Origin: Escherichia coli
GTDB lineage: Bacteria; Pseudomonadota; Gammaproteobacteria; Enterobacterales; Enterobacteriaceae
Assembly: GCF_030384885.1 (NCBI RefSeq)
Contig: NZ_CP128613.1
Reading direction: 5' to 3' (one strand)
Length of the DNA stretch: 64,000 nucleotides
The notes under the pieces were generated by a model that was not told where the DNA came from, searched no databases, and was given only the letters and a program-made list of their open reading frames with translations. Made by a program: the position numbers and the translations under genes. This document shows, in pieces, positions 38,679-58,641 of this stretch (positions are counted from its first letter, which is position 1; every line of letters starts with the position of its first letter).

Positions 38679-38965
38679 GATTCTCTGCCATTCAATTTTA
38701 GGGAAAATGATATCAAACGAACGTTTTAGCAGGACTGTCGCCGGTTGCCAACCATCTGCAAGCAAAGCATGGCGTTTTGTTGCGCGGGATCAGCAAGCGT
38801 AGCGGCAGTTGTTTACGCTTTTATTACAGATTTAATAAATTACCACATTTTAAGAATATCATTAATCTGTAATATATCTTTAACAATCTCAGGTTAAAAA
38901 CTTTCCTGTTTTCAACGGGGCTCTCCCGCTGAATATTCGCGCGTTAATTAAAATCAGGAATGAAA

Positions 38966-40021
38966 ATGAAAAAGAGCACTCTGGCATTAGTGGTGATGGG
39001 CATTGTGGCATCGGCATCCGTACAGGCCGCAGAAATATATAACAAAGACGGTAATAAACTGGATATCTATGGCAAAGTTAAAGCCATGCATTATATGAGC
39101 GATAATGACAGTAAAGATGGCGACCAAAGTTATATTCGTTTTGGTTTTAAAGGCGAAACACAAATTAACGATCAACTGACCGGTTATGGTCGCTGGGAAG
39201 CAGAGTTTGCCGGAAATAAAGCAGAGAGTGATACTGCTCAGCAAAAAACGCGTCTTGCCTTTGCCGGGTTGAAATATAAAGATTTGGGTTCTTTCGACTA
39301 TGGTCGTAACCTGGGGGCGCTGTATGACGTGGAAGCATGGACCGATATGTTCCCGGAATTCGGCGGCGATTCCTCCGCGCAGACCGACAACTTTATGACC
39401 AAACGCGCCAGCGGTCTGGCAACGTATCGGAACACCGACTTCTTCGGCGTTATCGATGGCCTGAACTTAACCCTGCAATATCAAGGAAAAAACGAAAACC
39501 GCGACGTTAAAAAGCAAAACGGTGATGGCTTCGGCACGTCATTGACATATGACTTTGGCGGCAGCGATTTTGCCATTAGTGGGGCCTATACCAACTCCGA
39601 TCGCACCAACGAGCAGAACCTGCAAAGCCGTGGCACGGGCAAGCGTGCAGAAGCATGGGCAACAGGCCTGAAATACGATGCCAATAATATTTACCTGGCA
39701 ACTTTCTATTCTGAAACGCGTAAAATGACGCCAATCTCTGGCGGCTTTGCCAATAAGACGCAGAACTTTGAAGCAGTCGCTCAATACCAATTCGACTTTG
39801 GCCTGCGTCCATCGCTGGGTTATGTCTTATCGAAAGGGAAAGATATTGAGGGCATCGGTGATGAGGATCTGGTCAATTATATTGATATCGGTGCTACATA
39901 TTATTTCAACAAAAATATGTCAGCGTTTGTTGATTATAAAATAAACCAACTGGACAGCGATAACAAATTAAATATTAATAATGATGATATTGTCGCGGTT
40001 GGGATGACCTATCAGTTTTAA
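38966..40021 (+). CDS. phoE: phosphate-starvation outer-membrane porin
   Basis: 351 aa from [21 protein letters not shown]. Confidence 0.95.
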
Positions 40022-40029
40022 TGGAGATT

Positions 40030-40056
40030 GCCGGATGCGGCGCATCCGGCACTTTT
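40030..40056 (+). terminator. phoE terminator
   Basis: GCCGGATGC-GGC-GCATCCGGC hairpin then ACTTTTC. Confidence 0.5.
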
Positions 40057-40059
40057 CAC

Positions 40060-40518
<459 letters not shown>

Positions 40519-41763
40519 TTAACACAATCGTTTTTCGATCCAGCTCGTGATTTCCTGAAGACCTTTGTCAAAATTCCGATACACGGGGTTAAACGGAATC
40601 TCTAACAATTTACCATCAGCAGATGATGAGGTGATTAAGCGAGAGTCCTCTTCCGGGCTGAACGGATCGTTCTTCCAATAGCCTGATAACATTGGCGTTG
40701 GGCAGCGACGGCCCAGCAATCCTTGCACTTTTAATGAATAACGATTCAGTTCCACACGCAACGCTTCATCGGAAGCATCATGCATCCCCAAACGACTCGC
40801 CAGAACGTCAAGATACATTTCCGGCACCTGTTGCTGGCACTTAAAATCACTCAACAGGGTATGAACTACCGGACCAAGACAGGCAACCGCTTTCAGACGC
40901 GGCGATTCAAGATATGCCAGACGCACAGCAACGTTAGCGCCAAAACGGAAACCAAAGGCCGCGACACGGGTGTGATCCACCCACGGGACGTTAGGCAGCG
41001 CCTTTAAGACGTGCTGATGCAACAGGCTGGAGTCCTGGGTGAGCTTCCATTTTGAAGAAAAGCCCACCGACGGCATATCAATAGTCAGCATCGCAATGCC
41101 GCGCGGGGCAAAATAACGTTCATACAGACTGTAATAATCCGTCTGCATCGCATCCAGACCACCACACATTAATACCGTCGGGAACGGGCCATCGCCTTTC
41201 GGCATATGCAAAAAGCCGGTGATGGGCGCACCGCCTGGTACGGTAAACTCCATCTGCCGCATCGTGCCCGGCAGACGTTGGGCGGCCTCTTCATAGGCAC
41301 GGTTTGACAAAGCCTGCGCTTGCTCGGCCAGGTCATCCCCTTTCAGATGAGGATAGGCGGCAATGTTGTACAACGTGGCCGCATGCAGCCAGTGACGACC
41401 ACTGAGTTGTGGATCTTCTTCCGCACAAGCTTTTTGTTGCCACACCATCGCCTGGGTGGCCCATTCATAAATCCAGTTGCCGCCGCGGTAGCCAATCACC
41501 GTATCGTATAAATCATCGTCGGTACGTTCAGCATCGCTCATCACAATACGCGCCTGAACGTCGAGGATTTCACGTGGGTCAATGCCGCGCCAGATCCACA
41601 TCAGACGGTTTATCATGCGATACCAGTGGGGGATGGTTTTACCATCAAGGGCCGACTGCACAGGCGGTTGTGCGCCGTGATTAAAGCGGCGGACTAGCGT
41701 CGAGGTTTCAGGATGTTTAAAGCGGGGTTTGAACAGGGTTTCGCTCAGGTTTGCCTGTGTCAT
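40519..41763 (-). CDS. frsA: fermentation/respiration switch esterase
   Basis: 414-aa ORF recognised. Confidence 0.95.
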
Positions 41764-41854
41764 GGATGCAGCCTCCAGAATACTTACTGGAAACTATTGT
41801 AACCTGCCTGAAGTTAAAAAGAACAACGCCCGGCAGTGCCAGGCGTTGAAAAGA

Positions 41855-42313
41855 TTAGCGACCGGAGATTGGCGGGACGAATACGACGCCCATATCCCAC
41901 GGTTGTTCAATCCAGGTATCTTGTGGGATATCAACAACATAATCATCAACCAGCGGACGACCTGCCGGTTTAGCGAAGATGGTGACAAAGTGCGCTTTTG
42001 GATACATTTCACGAATCGCAACTGCAGTACCGCCGGTATCCACCAGATCATCAATAACGATGAAGCCTTCGCCATCGCCTTCTGCGCGTTTCAGCACTTT
42101 AAGCTCGCGCTGGTTGTCGTGATCGTAGCTGGAAATACAAACGGTATCGACATGACGAATACCCAGTTCACGCGCCAGTAACGCACCCGGTACCAGACCG
42201 CCACGGCTTACGGCAATAATGCCTTTCCATTGTTCAGAAGGCATCAGTCGGCTTGCGAGTTTACGTGCATGGATCTGCAACATGTCCCAGGTGACGATGT
42301 ATTTTTCGCTCAT
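41855..42313 (-). CDS. gpt: xanthine-guanine phosphoribosyltransferase
   Basis: 152-aa ORF recognised. Confidence 0.95.
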
Positions 42314-42573
42314 GTGAAGTGTCCCAGCCTGTTTATCTACGGCTTAAAAAGTGTTCGAGGGGAAAATAGGTTGCGCGAGATTATAGAGATCTGACGCACT
42401 AAAAACCAGTATTTCACATGAGTCCGCGTCTTTTTACGCACAGCCTCTCCCTGACGCGGGATAAAGTGGTATTCTCAAACATATCTCGCAAGCCTGTCTT
42501 GTGTTGACAACATTTTCTGCTAACCCTGTGACCTGCAATACTGTTTTGCGGGTGATCGACAAGGAGACTTAAC

Positions 42574-44031
42574 GTGTCTGAACTGTCTCAATTATCTCCA
42601 CAGCCGCTGTGGGATATTTTTGCCAAAATCTGTTCTATTCCTCACCCGTCCTATCATGAAGAGCAACTCGCTGAATACATTGTTGGTTGGGCAAAAGAGA
42701 AAGGTTTCCATGTCGAACGCGATCAGGTGGGTAATATCCTGATTCGTAAACCTGCTACCGCAGGTATGGAAAATCGTAAACCAGTCGTCTTGCAGGCCCA
42801 CCTCGATATGGTGCCGCAGAAAAATAACGATACCGTGCACGATTTCACTAAAGATCCTATCCAGCCTTATATTGATGGCGAATGGGTTAAAGCGCGCGGT
42901 ACCACGCTGGGCGCGGATAACGGCATTGGTATGGCCTCTGCACTGGCGGTTCTGGCTGACGAAAACGTGGTTCACGGCCCGCTGGAAGTGCTGCTAACCA
43001 TGACCGAAGAAGCCGGTATGGACGGGGCGTTCGGCTTACAGAGCAACTGGTTACAGGCTGACATTCTGATTAACACCGACTCCGAAGAAGAAGGTGAAAT
43101 CTACATGGGTTGTGCTGGGGGTATCGACTTCACCTCCAACCTGCATTTAGATCGTGAAGCCGTTCCGGCTGGTTTTGAAACCTTCAAATTAACCTTAAAA
43201 GGTCTGAAAGGCGGTCACTCCGGCGGTGAAATCCACGTTGGCCTGGGTAACGCGAACAAACTGCTGGTGCGCTTCCTTGCGGGACATGCAGAAGAACTGG
43301 ACCTGCGTCTTATCGATTTCAACGGCGGCACACTGCGTAACGCCATCCCGCGTGAAGCCTTTGCGACCATTGCTGTCGCAGCTGATAAAGTCGACGCGCT
43401 GAAAACGCTGGTGAATACCTATCAGGACATCCTGAAAAACGAGCTGGCAGAGAAAGAGAAAAATCTGGCCTTGTTGCTGGACTCTGTTGCGAACGATAAA
43501 GCTGCCCTGATTGCGAAATCTCGCGATACCTTTATTCGTCTGTTGAACGCCACCCCTAACGGTGTGATCCGCAACTCCGACGTAGCAAAAGGCGTGGTTG
43601 AAACCTCACTGAACGTCGGTGTCGTGACCATGACCGACAACAACGTAGAAATTCACTGCCTGATCCGTTCTCTGATCGACAGCGGTAAAGACTACGTGGT
43701 GAGCATGCTGGATTCGCTGGGTAAACTGGCAGGCGCGAAAACCGAAGCGAAAGGCGCATATCCTGGCTGGCAGCCGGACGCTAATTCTCCGGTGATGCAT
43801 CTGGTACGTGAAACCTATCAGCGCCTGTTCAACAAGACGCCGAACATCCAGATTATTCACGCGGGCCTGGAATGTGGTCTGTTCAAAAAACCGTATCCGG
43901 AAATGGACATGGTTTCTATCGGGCCAACCATCACCGGTCCACACTCTCCGGATGAGCAAGTTCACATCGAAAGCGTAGGCCATTACTGGACACTGCTGAC
44001 AGAACTGCTGAAAGAAATTCCGGCGAAGTAA
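42574..44031 (+). CDS. pepD: cytosol non-specific dipeptidase (aminoacyl-histidine dipeptidase)
   Basis: 485-aa ORF recognised. Confidence 0.95.
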   Translation: MSELSQLSPQPLWDIFAKICSIPHPSYHEEQLAEYIVGWAKEKGFHVERDQVGNILIRKPATAGMENRKPVVLQAHLDMVPQKNNDTVHDFTKDPIQPYIDGEWVKARGTTLGADNGIGMASALAVLADENVVHGPLEVLLTMTEEAGMDGAFGLQSNWLQADILINTDSEEEGEIYMGCAGGIDFTSNLHLDREAVPAGFETFKLTLKGLKGGHSGGEIHVGLGNANKLLVRFLAGHAEELDLRLIDFNGGTLRNAIPREAFATIAVAADKVDALKTLVNTYQDILKNELAEKEKNLALLLDSVANDKAALIAKSRDTFIRLLNATPNGVIRNSDVAKGVVETSLNVGVVTMTDNNVEIHCLIRSLIDSGKDYVVSMLDSLGKLAGAKTEAKGAYPGWQPDANSPVMHLVRETYQRLFNKTPNIQIIHAGLECGLFKKPYPEMDMVSIGPTITGPHSPDEQVHIESVGHYWTLLTELLKEIPAK

Positions 44032-44041
44032 TTACAATAAT

Positions 44042-44071
44042 GTCCACGCCTGCGGGCGTGGACTACTGTTT
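44042..44071 (+). terminator. pepD terminator
   Basis: GTCCACGCC-TGCGG-GCGTGGAC hairpin then T-rich tail. Confidence 0.5.
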
Positions 44072-44078
44072 GAAGCCA

Positions 44079-44321
44079 ATGGCTATCTATATCGAAATAA
44101 CAAAACATTATGAAACTCATGAAAAGGTCGCATATTTATATAGCTGCGACCATATTTCATGGGGAGAATTTCTGATCACCAAAGAAAGTTTTGCGCTGGA
44201 ATCCGTGAAAGAACTTAAGGGTGAAAAGCAGAATTTTTATATGTTCAGAGCCTGGGGCAAAGTCAGGAAAACATACTTAGCCACGGGAGAATTTCCCCAG
44301 GAAACATGTTACGCCGCTTAA
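44079..44321 (+). CDS. hypothetical small protein (low confidence)
   Basis: About 80-aa AT-rich ORF after pepD terminator; no motif. Confidence 0.2.
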   Translation: MAIYIEITKHYETHEKVAYLYSCDHISWGEFLITKESFALESVKELKGEKQNFYMFRAWGKVRKTYLATGEFPQETCYAA

Positions 44322-44329
44322 AGTCAGAA

Positions 44330-44854
44330 TCATTTTTTCACGCGTTTTACATTTACCATTTTAGCATTACGCCTGCACCACATGGCAATGGCGGCAGCTA
44401 CTAATGCCAGTTCCAGTAAAAACGACCAGTGTAATAAAAAATTGAGCCACCACGGATGATGTACCGCCGTAATATGAAAGAGTGCAAAGGGTTGGTTAAC
44501 GAAAGGCATCAACCACCAGATATCACCGACCAGCGTATCAAGCAACAAATGCACAATACCATTCAGGCAAAACACCACGCCCAGCCACGCCGGAAGTTTA
44601 TTCTTCGCAATTGCGGCCCAGACTAATGTCGCCGCCAGCAGAGCAAACCATAATAATGGCCAATGAGACGGGTAAAGATGATGATGTCGTTGCCCGTTAT
44701 CCACCAGATAACACCAGAAGAGATCAAAATCGGGTGCAACGGCCCCGACTAAGCCAATAACCATCGCCCACCGCGCATGACGAGAAATCAGCGGTAGGCG
44801 TTTCACTAAAGTACAAGTTATTAAATATCCAGCCGGAAGATGACCGATAAACAT
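44330..44854 (-). CDS. membrane-bound metal-dependent hydrolase-like protein (YdjM/DUF457-like)
   Basis: Hydrophobic His-rich ORF; start chosen at Met with AAAGGA RBS (alternative Met at 44869). Confidence 0.55.
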   Translation of the reverse strand: MFIGHLPAGYLITCTLVKRLPLISRHARWAMVIGLVGAVAPDFDLFWCYLVDNGQRHHHLYPSHWPLLWFALLAATLVWAAIAKNKLPAWLGVVFCLNGIVHLLLDTLVGDIWWLMPFVNQPFALFHITAVHHPWWLNFLLHWSFLLELALVAAAIAMWCRRNAKMVNVKRVKK

Positions 44855-44916
44855 GACGAATCCTTTCATTTTTGCCCGCCGCTTTCACGAAGAAAACGGC
44901 GGGTGACATTCCTCTA

Positions 44917-45531
44917 TTACACAGCGATAAAAGCCATCCCTGTAAACGTCCGTCGCGGGTTGCCACGTTCAATCTGGTGATGGAACATTCGCCGCTGCGA
45001 TTTCAGCGCCGCGCTATTTTCCTGTCGCTGTTGTTCCAGCTTCCAGGCAATCAGTAATCGCGCCAGCCGTTTGTTAGCATGCTGGCTGCGCTCTGACTGA
45101 ACCTTCACGCTAATCCCGGATGCCAGATGCGTGGCGCGTACCGCCGAGTCGGTTTTATTGACATGTTGACCGCCCGGCCCCGACGAACGCAGCGTCTCAT
45201 AATGGATCGCATCGGATTGCTCCTGCTCATCTGAAGTAAAACGCCCAATGCCCAGAAACCAGTTTTTGCGCCCATGATGAGGGCGATACGGACTCGGACA
45301 AATCCACTGGATAGTGCCACACCAGCTTTCGCTTAGTGCCCATGCGTTGTCGCCATCAAGTGAAACCAGCGCCGAACGCAGTGTGTCAGAGTAGCGACCC
45401 GTTTCTGTTTCCAGCACCGTTACCGCGACGTCTTGTCGGGCAGCTTCTTTAATCAGCCTGTCCAGTGCCTTTTTCACTGCGAGACAACATTCTTCCGGCC
45501 CCTGAGCTGAGGAGAGTTGTAGCAAGATCAT
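44917..45531 (-). CDS. prfH: peptide chain release factor homologue PrfH
   Basis: 204 aa from MILLQ; contains [16 protein letters not shown] (GGQ motif); start overlaps rtcB stop (ATGA). Confidence 0.85.
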
Positions 45532-46667
45532 CCTTTTTTCCCTCCACTGTTTTTGAGCGTCAGCACCGGACGCAGTCGCGCGACAGGAATAATTAAACCG
45601 GCCTGCACCAGACATTGCACCACACTTTCAGCCGATTTATAGGCTTGTGGCGCTTCTTCAAAGATGAGTTGTTTATCGCGACAAATTACCCGACTGCCAA
45701 GTTCAGTACGTGAGAGTTGCGTCGCCGTGTGTTTCGCTGCCAGACGCCCTTTACACTCGGTGCGCCCCCATTTACGCCCTGCCCCATGCGCCAGCGAGTG
45801 GAGCGTTTTTTCGTTCGCAACAGGCTTAACCAGCCAGGAGTAATCACCGCGTGAACCGGGAATAATCACCAGACCGTTGTCATCCGGCGTAGCCCCTTTA
45901 CGGTGTAACCATCCTTGTTGATCGCCGATTCGACATGCGCTAACAAAGTTATGCGCCACATCCAGAACCGAATTTCCGTTGGCCTTAACTTGTTGCATTA
46001 TGCGCAAAGCGATCAGCTGGCGATTAATACGCGCAAACGCCAGCGCATCGTCATGTTCCGCAATATACCGTAGCGCGTCGTCACTGCCTTGAGGCAAACC
46101 ATGATGCGAAAACGAGGCAATATGCCGCTGTAAAATAGACTGCCCCAGCCCCCTCGAGCCGCTATGAACCAGCAGTTGCAGATGCTGCGCATCCAGACCT
46201 GCCAGTGCAAACAGTTCCGCGTCGATGATTTGATCAACTTTTTGCAGTTCTGCGAAGTGGTTTCCGCCACCGATAGAGCCAAGCGCGCAGCGCCACGGAT
46301 GCTGTGCAAACGCTGACGGCAGGTTTTCCTCCAGCCAGCTTTCTTCAGCAACGTCATCCAGCGCAGATAATCGCTTTTCAAACTTATCGGCGTTGTATTT
46401 ACGCGCGAGAATATCTGTTTGCCATAGCGCCATGCCGCAGCCGATATCATTGCCGACCAGTGCCGGGTAAAAACGGCCTACGGAGAAGAACGCTGCGCCA
46501 ATCGGATAGCCGCGTCCGGGGTGTAAATCTGGCATCCCTACTACGCGTTGCATGTCGGGTAAATTTGCCGAGGTGTGTAATTGTTGGATCGCTGAACTCT
46601 CGATCCACAGGTCATCAGATGCGATGGTAAATACCGCATCGGATAAGGGACGAATATATTTGCCCAT
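45528..46667 (-). CDS. rtcB: RtcB-family RNA ligase paired with PrfH (RtcB2-type)
   Basis: 379-aa ORF with RtcB-like His/Cys metal-site motifs (..GGNHFAE.., ..HSGSRG.., ..AHGAGR..); translationally coupled to prfH. Confidence 0.8.
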
Positions 46668-46671
46668 GTAT

Positions 46672-46770
46672 CATTCCATTTATACTCGTCATACTTCAAG
46701 TTGCATGTACTGCGACTGCGTTCGTTCACCCCAGTCACTTACTTTAGTAAGCTCCTGGGGATTCACTCGC
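46672..46770. repeat. ERIC/IRU element
   Basis: Reverse complement reads GTGAATCCCCAGGAGCTTAC.AAGTAAGTGACTGGGGTGAACGAACGCAG..ATGCAACTTGAAGTATGACGAGTATA, matching the ERIC consensus from memory. Confidence 0.65.
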
Positions 46771-46984
46771 TTGTCGCCTTCCTGCAACTCGAATTATTTA
46801 GAGTATATAAATATAAAAATCAAGAAATGGCAGACGAATCCAGGGCAAGAAAAAAAGAATTAATCCTGGAAAGGTCTGCAAAGAGTCATTGATAAAGGAT
46901 TTTTCATGATTTACCTCCTTGCAGTTTGTGGAATAAGAAAACGCGCACATATTAGGCGGGCGTTATTTTCATTGCAAGCTGGAT

Positions 46985-47437
46985 TTAGTGTTGCGGTTTA
47001 TATCGCATATGAAAATTAGTAAACCACGCTCCCCGGCATTCAACGCGCTGCTGCTTAACTGTCTGAAAACCATAACGTTCAAAAAAGGGTTTTGCGGTTA
47101 TGCTGGCATCTACCGTAAGTTCGGATTCAGACTTAATCAAAGGTTTTAACAAAGCGCTGGCAACCCCGCAGCGGTTGTATTTCGGATCAACAAATAACAT
47201 ATCGATATAATGCTCAATGCAGGTAATAAAGCCGACCAGTTGTGTATTAATAACCGCAACCCGCACTTGTGATTTCGCGAGTTTCTCTTTCCATCGATGT
47301 TCATCAATCTGCGCCCAGGCGGCAATTTGTTGTGGTGAATAATGCTGACTAGCGGTCATCGTAACCGCTCTAATAAAAATAGCGCATAGTTGCTGAAAAT
47401 CGCCAGGCTGATAGTTCCTTATTTGTATATTATTCAT
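46985..47437 (-). CDS. yafP: GNAT-family acetyltransferase
   Basis: 150-aa ORF; start overlaps dinB stop. Confidence 0.85.
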
Positions 47438-48489
47438 AATCCCAGCACCAGTTGTCTTTCCATTTGCGGATCAAGCAACGTCACATGCAGCCCCACCAGT
47501 CGCACACCGCGCCCGCCACGGCGTTCATCCCAGGTTTTACGCGCAGTGGCGATCAAGTCAGCTTTATTCAGCCGCGGCCAGACGTGTTCCTGGGTGGTTT
47601 GCTGAAAATCGTCGAACTTTAATTTCACCCCCTGGCGGGCAATCAGTAAATCAGGTTTTACCTTTGCCAGACGACGTTCAAGTTCCGGGTACAACCGCTC
47701 GATGATCGCTTCACATTCAGACCAGTGATGAATATCTTCCGCCATCGTGCGTTCTACACCGACGGATTTTCGCAACCTTTCGCTGTTAACGTCGCGCTCG
47801 TCAATGCCCTGACTACGCTCCCACAAAATGCGGCCAAATTTGCCAAAGCGTTTAAGCAATGTCACCAGATCACACTTTTGTACATCGCCGCAGGTTCGTA
47901 GCCCCATCGCTTCCAGTTTTGCCGCCGAGACTTTGCCGACACCGGGAATTTTTGCCAGCGGTAAGGTTTGCAGAAATGCCGGAACTTCTGCTGGCGTAAT
48001 CACAAACTGACCGTTGGGTTTATTCATGTCTGAGGCGATTTTGGCGAGAAACTTGACCGGCGCAACGCCCGCAGACGCCGTCAGTTGCAGCTCGTTGAAG
48101 ATCGTCTGGCGGATTTCCTGAGCGATAAGGGTCGCAGAGCCGTGGCAATGGACACTATCGGTGACGTCGAGATAGGCTTCATCCAGTGACAGCGGCTCAA
48201 TACGCGATGTGTAGCGAGAGAAGATTTCGCGGATATGATTTGACGCTTCTTTGTAGGCGTCAAAGCGCCCTGGAAGCAAGGTGAGATGCGGACACAGTTT
48301 GAGCGCCATGCCGGTTGGCATTGCGCTACGCACGCCAAATTTACGCGCAGGATAATTGGCGGTGCTGATCACCCCCCGGCGTTCGCGGCTGCCGCCAATA
48401 GCAATAGGGATATCGCGCAGGGCGGGATTGTCGCGCATCTCCACCGCGGCGAAAAAGCAGTCCATATCCACATGAATGATTTTACGCAT
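47434..48489 (-). CDS. dinB: DNA polymerase IV (Y-family)
   Basis: 351-aa [29 protein letters not shown]... Confidence 0.95.
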
Positions 48490-48503
48490 TGCTCACCTCT
48501 CAA

Positions 48504-48523
48504 TACTGGTAAAGTATACAGTG
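48504..48523 (-). promoter_or_regulatory. LexA (SOS) box of dinB
   Basis: Minus strand reads CACTGTATACTTTACCAGTA (CTGT-N8-ACAG class) 15-35 bp upstream of dinB start. Confidence 0.7.
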
Positions 48524-48559
48524 ATTTCAGAGTTTGAGAAATGCGTAAAGATTCAGCAT

Positions 48560-49138
48560 TTAACGCGTTCGCTGCGAAAGCACCTGCTGCTTATCCAGCT
48601 TTTTCACCAACGGCTGCACCACTTTATCGCCATGCTGACCAAAATATTGATACAACGTATCGGACGCGCTTTTGGTGAGCACCATAATCTCAATGCGCCG
48701 ATTGCCCGCGCTTTGTGGATTTTTGGCATCCAGCAGCATCTGGTCCGCCATTGCGCTCACCCGCGCTTCGCCCTGTAACACCGGCTGCAACTGGCGGTCC
48801 ACCGCGCCGCCGGAAAGTGCGGTGCGTTTGTCCAGCATCTGCGTGAGCGCCGTACCCTGCGCCTGCCCGCTCTTACGCTGGCTATGACGATAATCGAGCA
48901 ATTGCTGCTCCAGTTGCCCGAGATAGTGATCCGCCTGCTGCAACGTGGTGAGCTGATCGTTAAGCTGCACGCTGTAACGCTGCGGGCGAGTGGTAATCAG
49001 CGGCGAGGCCGGATATTCACTCGCCGTCGCCGGGAGCTTTTGCCGCACCGCCTGAGTGGGCGCAACGGTTGACGACGATACCGCAGCGCTATGCGCGCCG
49101 CCGGTGGCGAGTGATGAAGATGTAAGTCCGACCTGCAT
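48560..49138 (-). pseudogene. remnant ORF carrying a MotB/OmpA-type C-terminal motif (LafU/MbhA-like), probably a deletion-fusion product
   Basis: 192-aa ORF ending ..NRRIEIMVLTKS.. (OmpA-like peptidoglycan-binding signature) but lacking MotB N-terminal TM region; sits where the flagellin/motor (laf) cluster would be. Confidence 0.45.
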
Positions 49139-58624: not shown

Positions 58625-58641
58625 AAGCAATCGCTGTGCCA
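58625..58641 (-). promoter_or_regulatory. sigma-54 (-24/-12) promoter for lfgB operon
   Basis: Minus strand reads TGGCAC-AGCGA-TTGCT, exact -24 GG / -12 GC spacing. Confidence 0.55.

Follow-up and report, generated by a model that had tools for sequence, protein, structure and literature searches.

Does the chromosome analysed here carry a complete pair of rtcB2 and prfH, encoding an RtcB-like RNA ligase and a release factor homologue, and would the two proteins be expected to reverse the damage that ribotoxins inflict on the decoding centre? A sequence-only reading of the window (the whole stretch of 64,000 nucleotides of E. coli DNA that was analysed) had proposed as much. The operon, its decay in K-12, translational coupling, structure and in vivo protection are all already published, and the question concerns the allele found in this strain.

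Organisation of the locus

The gene order in this part of the E. coli chromosome is frsA-gpt-pepD ... rtcB-prfH ... yafP-dinB. The pair and its junction comprise the following features.

45528..46667, minus strand: rtcB2, 379 aa, an uninterrupted ORF whose identical sequence is annotated in RefSeq
44917..45531, minus strand: prfH, peptide chain release factor H, 204 aa, with its ATG at 45531 and its stop at 44917
45528..45531, minus strand: ATGA overlap of the rtcB2 stop and the prfH start, read from the sequence
45540..45545, minus strand: GGAGGG, a Shine-Dalgarno-like hexamer within the 3' end of rtcB2, 9 nt before the prfH ATG

The plus strand at 45528-45531 reads TCAT, giving ATGA on the minus strand, and the rtcB2 TGA and the prfH ATG share two bases. 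The overlap is thus exactly as the sequence-only reading had described it. Reading of the sequence and alignment of alleles identified no frameshift and no internal stop in either gene. In the mechanical ORF list prfH begins at an upstream ATG (45615, giving 232 aa); the homologous start is best placed at ATG 45531, which matches both the protein in PDB 7SA4 and the RefSeq annotation. With rtcB2 immediately upstream of prfH, in the same orientation and with stop and start overlapping, the locus has the arrangement of a PrfH-coupled RtcB. Such stop/start adjacency is described by Baranov et al. in 2006 (PMC1586002), who were the first to propose translational coupling.

The 1,751-bp locus was aligned for the window and four other full-length E. 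coli alleles (L003-L006). These five alleles have zero indels, and the junction GGAGGGAAAAAAGGATGATC, which includes the overlap and GGAGGG, is invariant. A relative from another enterobacterial genus (L007, with 81% nucleotide identity in pepD) has dinB-rtcB-prfH in the same orientation. Its two proteins are 74% and 76% identical to those of the window, and the pair retains every key residue and the ATGA overlap, with an SD-like GGGGAG at the equivalent position. The overlap is kept both in the E. coli alleles and in this relative, which is consistent with translational coupling. The initial claim of an intact pair stands on these observations, both ORFs being uninterrupted and their overlap extending across alleles and to a second genus.

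Protein families and functional residues

Pfam RtcB (PF01139) matches RtcB2 in two pieces (E 8.9e-59 and 4.1e-12) and PrfH matches the Pfam RF-1 (GGQ) domain (E 5.3e-24). RtcB2 fits the models of the PrfH-coupled RtcB subfamily, namely NCBIfam NF007153 (638.9 bits against a cut-off of 407, aligned over 1-378 of 379) and TIGR03073 'release_rtcB' (617.4 bits against 271.8), and not other RtcB models. PrfH scores 326.2 bits with TIGR03072 'release_prfH' (cut-off 166.65), its residues 2-201 covering positions 1-200 of the 200 in the profile. Given these Pfam matches and the NCBIfam equivalog scores above cut-off, rtcB2 and prfH are best read as genuine genes and not as a chance pair of ORFs. None of the four locus proteins matched a PADLOC defence-system model, and the 2023 library used thus does not include the system.

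Alignment of RtcB2 to the P. horikoshii and T. thermophilus RtcB structures places the metal ligands and nucleophile at D74, C77, N136/H137, H168, H239 and H294, all of which are present. With the P. horikoshii numbering counted from the structure-sequence alignment, D74, C77 and H137 stand opposite D95, C98 and H203, whilst H168, H239 and H294 stand opposite H234, H329 and H404. We take those P. horikoshii residues to be the two-metal site and the guanylylated histidine. In EcRtcB2, H294N is a catalytic knockout (PMC9304027); the same paper supplied H294, and the PrfH residues considered below, for our list of key residues. E. coli RtcB1 resembles RtcB2 in its RtcB fold, its GTP/Mn ligase chemistry and its catalytic residues, but the two are reported to be only ~28% identical and RtcB1 is specific for tRNA, not 30S (PMC9304027). 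RtcB1 also differs in operon partner and regulator, being encoded by the rtcBA operon under RtcR/sigma-54 control. Neither rtcA nor rtcR is found near the window rtcB2, whose neighbours are yafP/dinB and prfH/YdjM-like/pepD.

The best PDB match of PrfH is chain 8 of 7SA4, 'Peptide chain release factor H' (E 4.9e-133), the ATCC 25922 protein solved on the damaged ribosome. The two are ~96% identical, with six substitutions over residues 1-202 (K20R, A31T, V56I, S100A, H110R, R169Q), and the last two residues are AV in the window protein versus EG in that of ATCC 25922. In the published structure R83, H86, R88 and R189 read the 3'-phosphorylated A1493 end of the cut 16S rRNA, K89 and N90 contact h18 and S12, H85 stacks on C1054, R52, S53, R181 and H184 contact C1914, and Q122 is the catalytic glutamine of the GGQ motif (PMC9304027). 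Every one of these residues is present in window PrfH. The GGQ, whose retention had been claimed, was located at G120, G121 and Q122. Alignment to a characterised RtcB2-PrfH pair, the check proposed with that claim, thus finds the functional residues kept, and neither a frameshift nor a missing catalytic residue, named as what would count against an intact pair, is present.

PrfH lacks release factor domain 1; its 204 aa align to RF2 residues ~115-305 of 351-365 (domains 2-4). It has in common with RF1, RF2 and ArfB the GGQ peptidyl-tRNA hydrolase domain, but the signal read by PrfH is cleaved rRNA, in place of a stop codon or an empty mRNA channel (PMC9304027). Window PrfH falls far below the cut-offs of the canonical release factor models (prfB, 91.7 against 370; prfA, 79.7 against 423.25), and of PRK00591 (81.4 against 400) and ArfB (34.2 against 100). 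The next PDB match is the tailed Capnocytophaga PrfH 9MOR (231 aa; E 3.4e-39 over residues 3-201). This C. gingivalis protein (CgPrfH, 9MOR/9MQ4) belongs with window PrfH to IPR017509/TIGR03072 and has the same two-domain core and GGQ, but at 231 aa it carries a basic C-terminal tail that enables it to rescue intact non-stop ribosomes too (PMC12829566). Such dual activity defines the PrfH-CT subfamily of 225-250 aa with a basic C-terminal tail (PMC12829566). Window PrfH ends at residue 204 and is the short form (TIGR03072/IPR017509); since it has no such tail, it is not expected to act on intact non-stop ribosomes as well.

Function of the characterised operon and a model for the window pair

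The operon of ATCC 25922 (Tian 2022; Maviza 2022, 2026) is the closest characterised system. It is alike in species, chromosomal position, gene order, ATGA overlap, protein lengths (379/204 aa), rRNA-contact residues, Q122, H294 and metal ligands. The window differs in the six PrfH substitutions and C-terminal AV given above, and in its prfH-pepD interval, where a YdjM-family gene and a 93-aa ORF are found that occur in only ~6% of genomes.

Published data on this operon can be set out as (i) peptide release by EcPrfH is confined to 70S ribosomes with a 16S rRNA cut between A1493 and G1494, and occurs with or without mRNA in the A site (PMC9304027); (ii) EcRtcB2 ligates cleaved 30S and does not ligate colicin E5- or D-cleaved tRNAs, the reverse of EcRtcB1 (PMC9304027); (iii) expression of the pair reverses colicin E3-like toxicity, an effect abolished or reduced by Q122E and H294N (PMC9304027); (iv) ATCC 25922 becomes more sensitive to colicin E3 once the genes are deleted, K-12 derivatives being sensitive regardless (PMC9223846); (v) the operon is protective at native expression levels (PMC9223846, PMC13166195) and gives no in vivo protection from colicins E5 and D (PMC9223846). 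The requirement for PrfH is disputed between two published groups, as overexpressed RtcB2 alone suffices (PMC9223846, PMC13166195). In the 2026 study RtcB2 needs no partner to repair 30S and vacant 70S, and translating ribosomes are repaired faster with PrfH (PMC13166195). The suggestion that such pairs rescue or repair ribotoxin-cleaved ribosomes has therefore been shown by experiment for the ~96%-identical pair of ATCC 25922 (PMC9304027, PMC9223846, PMC13166195).

We propose that the locus is very probably an intact chromosomal rtcB2-prfH operon, encoding a two-protein system that would reverse ribotoxin damage to the decoding centre. The 16S rRNA is cut between A1493 and G1494 by toxins such as colicin E3 and CdiA-CT(ECL), and ribosomes stall during translation. 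[quoted passage not shown] RtcB2, a GTP/Mn-dependent 3'-phosphate/5'-OH RNA ligase, would then reseal the 16S rRNA, with free 30S subunits as its best substrate. Co-expression of RtcB2 and PrfH would be secured by the four-base ATGA overlap together with the internal Shine-Dalgarno. We infer from sequence that the window allele would be expressed and active in this strain, and no feature of the sequence speaks against this reading. An intact pair predicts tolerance to colicin E3, CdiA-CT(ECL) and related 16S rRNA-cleaving toxins, and such tolerance would bear on gut competition and on strain typing, since half of E. coli are without the system.

Loss in K-12 and divergence within E. coli

Alignment of the window with K-12 identifies one segment of the pair that K-12 lacks.

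45434..46460: the 1,027-bp segment lost in K-12, BL21 and O157:H7 (the 41%-coverage class)

The deletion takes out residues 1-33 of PrfH and 70-379 of RtcB2, and the K-12 MG1655 annotation has ykfJ and prfH as pseudogenes (b0235/b0236). The claim that the locus has decayed to a prfH pseudogene in K-12 is confirmed in these terms, with ykfJ and prfH both pseudogenes that arise from this single deletion. A '~1000 nt deletion' at the K-12 locus was already described in 2006 (PMC1586002). The K-12 locus is orthologous, lying between pepD and yafP with flanks that are 95-99% identical, the ERIC element included. It differs in being without 45434-46460 and without the 44032-44924 segment, and in carrying yafN-yafO, which is absent from the window.

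Counting as full-length those genomes that carry at least 80% of the locus, 2,674 of the 5,426 complete E. coli genomes have rtcB2-prfH. The other genomes include remnant classes of 41% (K-12, BL21, O157:H7), 32% and 22% coverage. With a full-length locus in this many genomes the intact state is not special; the intact pair is common and ordinary in E. coli.

The window allele belongs to a lineage that is 4-5% divergent in DNA from nearly all other complete genomes. Across 44917-46667 just one of the 5,426 genomes reaches 99% identity with it and the next best stands at 95.7%. In protein it is ~4-5% divergent from other E. coli alleles, its RtcB2 having 18-21 amino-acid differences from them. 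Among the five aligned alleles 38 positions vary in RtcB2 and 14 in PrfH, and none of these is a key residue. Mean dN/dS by the Nei-Gojobori method is 0.15 for rtcB2 and 0.08 for prfH. Compared with the other alleles, that of the window gives values of 0.08-0.19, which indicate continuing purifying selection on rtcB2-prfH.

The dS between E. coli alleles is high at rtcB2 and prfH (0.10-0.30), and the yafP of strain MS 198-1 is only 92% identical to that of the window. Taken with the scarcity of near-identical alleles, this suggests that there may be old allelic lineages, or recombination, in the rtcB2-prfH interval.

Upstream region and expression

46685..46808, minus strand: ERIC-type repeat in the 5' region of rtcB2, ending ~15 nt before the start codon

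The ERIC2 primer sequence is found in this repeat with one mismatch (46723-46744). The repeat, shared with K-12, forms an extended hairpin (-57.9 kcal/mol, z -9.35). The sole Rfam match lies over it, a full-length but sub-threshold match to V_AS5 (Vibrio RNA AS5; E 4.5e-8; 46.7 bits, with a gathering score of 96), suggesting an overlap of this Rfam family with ERIC-like repeats.

No sigma-70-like promoter was recognised in 46668-46984 (317 bp, minus strand), a scan that leaves the presence of a promoter possible. A search of the accessible literature found no mapping of a native rtcB2-prfH promoter. We also looked for a LexA box or a sigma-54 promoter directly upstream of rtcB2, and neither was found in 46668-46984; the dinB box (48506-48521) is the sole LexA-like site in the vicinity. 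The operon could be expressed at least in part by read-through from the LexA-controlled dinB-yafP unit upstream, although we regard this as unlikely. In the window dinB, yafP, rtcB2, prfH and the downstream YdjM-family gene are all co-oriented and there is only a weak hairpin after yafP. In the relative from another genus dinB, rtcB, prfH and a YdjM-like gene likewise point the same way, and only ~215 bp separate dinB from rtcB, which follows it. Were read-through to occur, it would link ribosome repair to SOS, the signal that also triggers colicin release in neighbouring cells.

A 15-codon ORF (MKNPLSMTLCRPFQD; 46860-46907, minus strand) lies between yafP and the ERIC element. It has a strong Shine-Dalgarno (AAGGAGG) with 5-nt spacing, is kept in K-12 with one amino-acid change and is unannotated in the two RefSeq records examined. 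It may encode a small protein or a leader peptide, or be a chance ORF. Strain MS 198-1 (L003, 3273-3970) has an IS1 copy between yafP and rtcB2, ~20 bp before the rtcB2 start, where it could change how the operon is expressed in this lineage.

Alternative explanations

The genes might be intact yet silent or ineffective, as a cryptic locus drifting towards a K-12-like loss or one with substitutions that impair activity. Around half of E. coli are without the locus through several independent deletions (the 41%, 32% and 22% classes), so it is dispensable, and both the lack of a recognised sigma-70-like promoter upstream of rtcB2 and the number of amino-acid differences in its RtcB2 would fit this account. 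Set against them are the dN/dS of the window allele, with its signature of purifying selection, the unaltered key residues of both proteins and the protection that the ATCC 25922 operon affords at native expression levels. On balance a silent or ineffective locus is very unlikely, and we favour a functional operon.

Still less credible are two readings that would divorce the proteins or fuse them. RtcB2 has its fold and catalytic residues in common with RtcB1, and might for that reason be a general tRNA/mRNA repair enzyme whilst PrfH served in unrelated ribosome rescue. The window protein nonetheless fits the PrfH-coupled subfamily models and not other RtcB models, and rtcA, rtcR and a sigma-54 promoter are absent nearby. 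The opposite substrate preferences of EcRtcB2 (cleaved 30S) and EcRtcB1 (colicin E5- and D-cleaved tRNAs) (PMC9304027), and the failure of the operon to protect against colicins E5 and D in vivo (PMC9223846), also argue against this division of labour, to which we attach hardly any weight. The A6 run at the junction (GGG AAA AAA GGA TGA) raises the question of a -1 frameshift that fuses RtcB2 to PrfH, as the prfH frame is -1 relative to rtcB2 and the SD-like GGAGGG immediately precedes the run in a manner superficially like dnaX. We rejected this candidate and give it next to no chance. Read in the rtcB2 frame, the A6 run does not form a canonical X XXY YYZ heptamer, the orthologue from the other genus keeps the overlap and the SD but not the A-run (GAGAAAAACGCATGA), and both the structure and the assays have PrfH functioning as a free protein of 204 aa (PDB 7SA4, PMC9304027). 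The preferred reading remains two separate proteins, co-expressed and directed at the cleaved ribosome.

The segment between prfH and pepD

Downstream of prfH the window contains the following.

44875..44903, minus strand: hairpin with a 12-bp stem and no U-tract, 14 nt after the prfH stop
44032-44924: extra segment between pepD and prfH, 893 bp, absent from K-12 by alignment
44330..44854/44869, minus strand: gene for a YdjM-family inner-membrane 'metal-dependent hydrolase' (Pfam PF04307, E 1.1e-8)
44040..44321, plus strand: 93-aa ORF with no family match

The hairpin at 44875-44903 has a fold of -22.9 kcal/mol (z -4.85). It was not called as an intrinsic terminator and may be a 3'-end or stabiliser structure. 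One boundary of the 893-bp segment falls in the last codons of prfH, where it changes the C-terminal dipeptide from EG to AV; this ending of PrfH would appear to stem from the neighbouring insertion or replacement. The segment is found in 325 of the 5,426 complete E. coli genomes, and all 325 have an intact rtcB2-prfH.

NCBIfam gave no match for the 93-aa ORF or for the YdjM-like protein. A three-gene system that includes the YdjM-family gene was considered and rejected, as Klebsiella aerogenes has a YdjM-like gene in the same dinB-yafP/pepD slot with rtcB and prfH absent. A Halopseudomonas YdjM homologue likewise has no rtcB/prfH-type neighbours. Since the gene is found without the pair in both organisms, it is best regarded as a neighbour by synteny that does not form part of the system. 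Right after the pepD stop there is a 9-bp GC-rich palindromic hairpin (44042-44063), called terminator-like on either strand. As this hairpin shares sequence with the opening codons of the 93-aa ORF, it is somewhat doubtful that the ORF is a real gene.

The wider neighbourhood

Within 46985-48489 dinB runs straight into yafP, stop and start overlapping at 47434-47437, whereas in K-12 the yafN-yafO toxin-antitoxin pair separates the two genes. Window dinB is intact (351 aa), unlike the gene of strain 2013C-4282, which carries a frameshift according to its annotation. Over 38917-48761 the window and this strain otherwise agree at 99.99% with one gap, and the match ends at 48761.

A 192-aa ORF (~48560-49138) seems to join the 3' part of lafU to a lafW-like gene that normally follows lfgL. 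The junction lies near 48757-48761 and the lfg genes of the lateral flagella (Flag-2) continue beyond 49155. No complete E. coli genome covers both sides of this junction in one place. It would be a partial Flag-2 deletion different from that of K-12.

Inside the Flag-2 lateral flagellar region there is a perfect sigma-54 promoter core (TGGCACAGCGATTGC; 58627-58641, minus strand), the only zero-mismatch site of its kind in the window. Lateral flagellar genes are sigma-54/LafK-dependent, a dependence that would fit the position of this core within the Flag-2 region.
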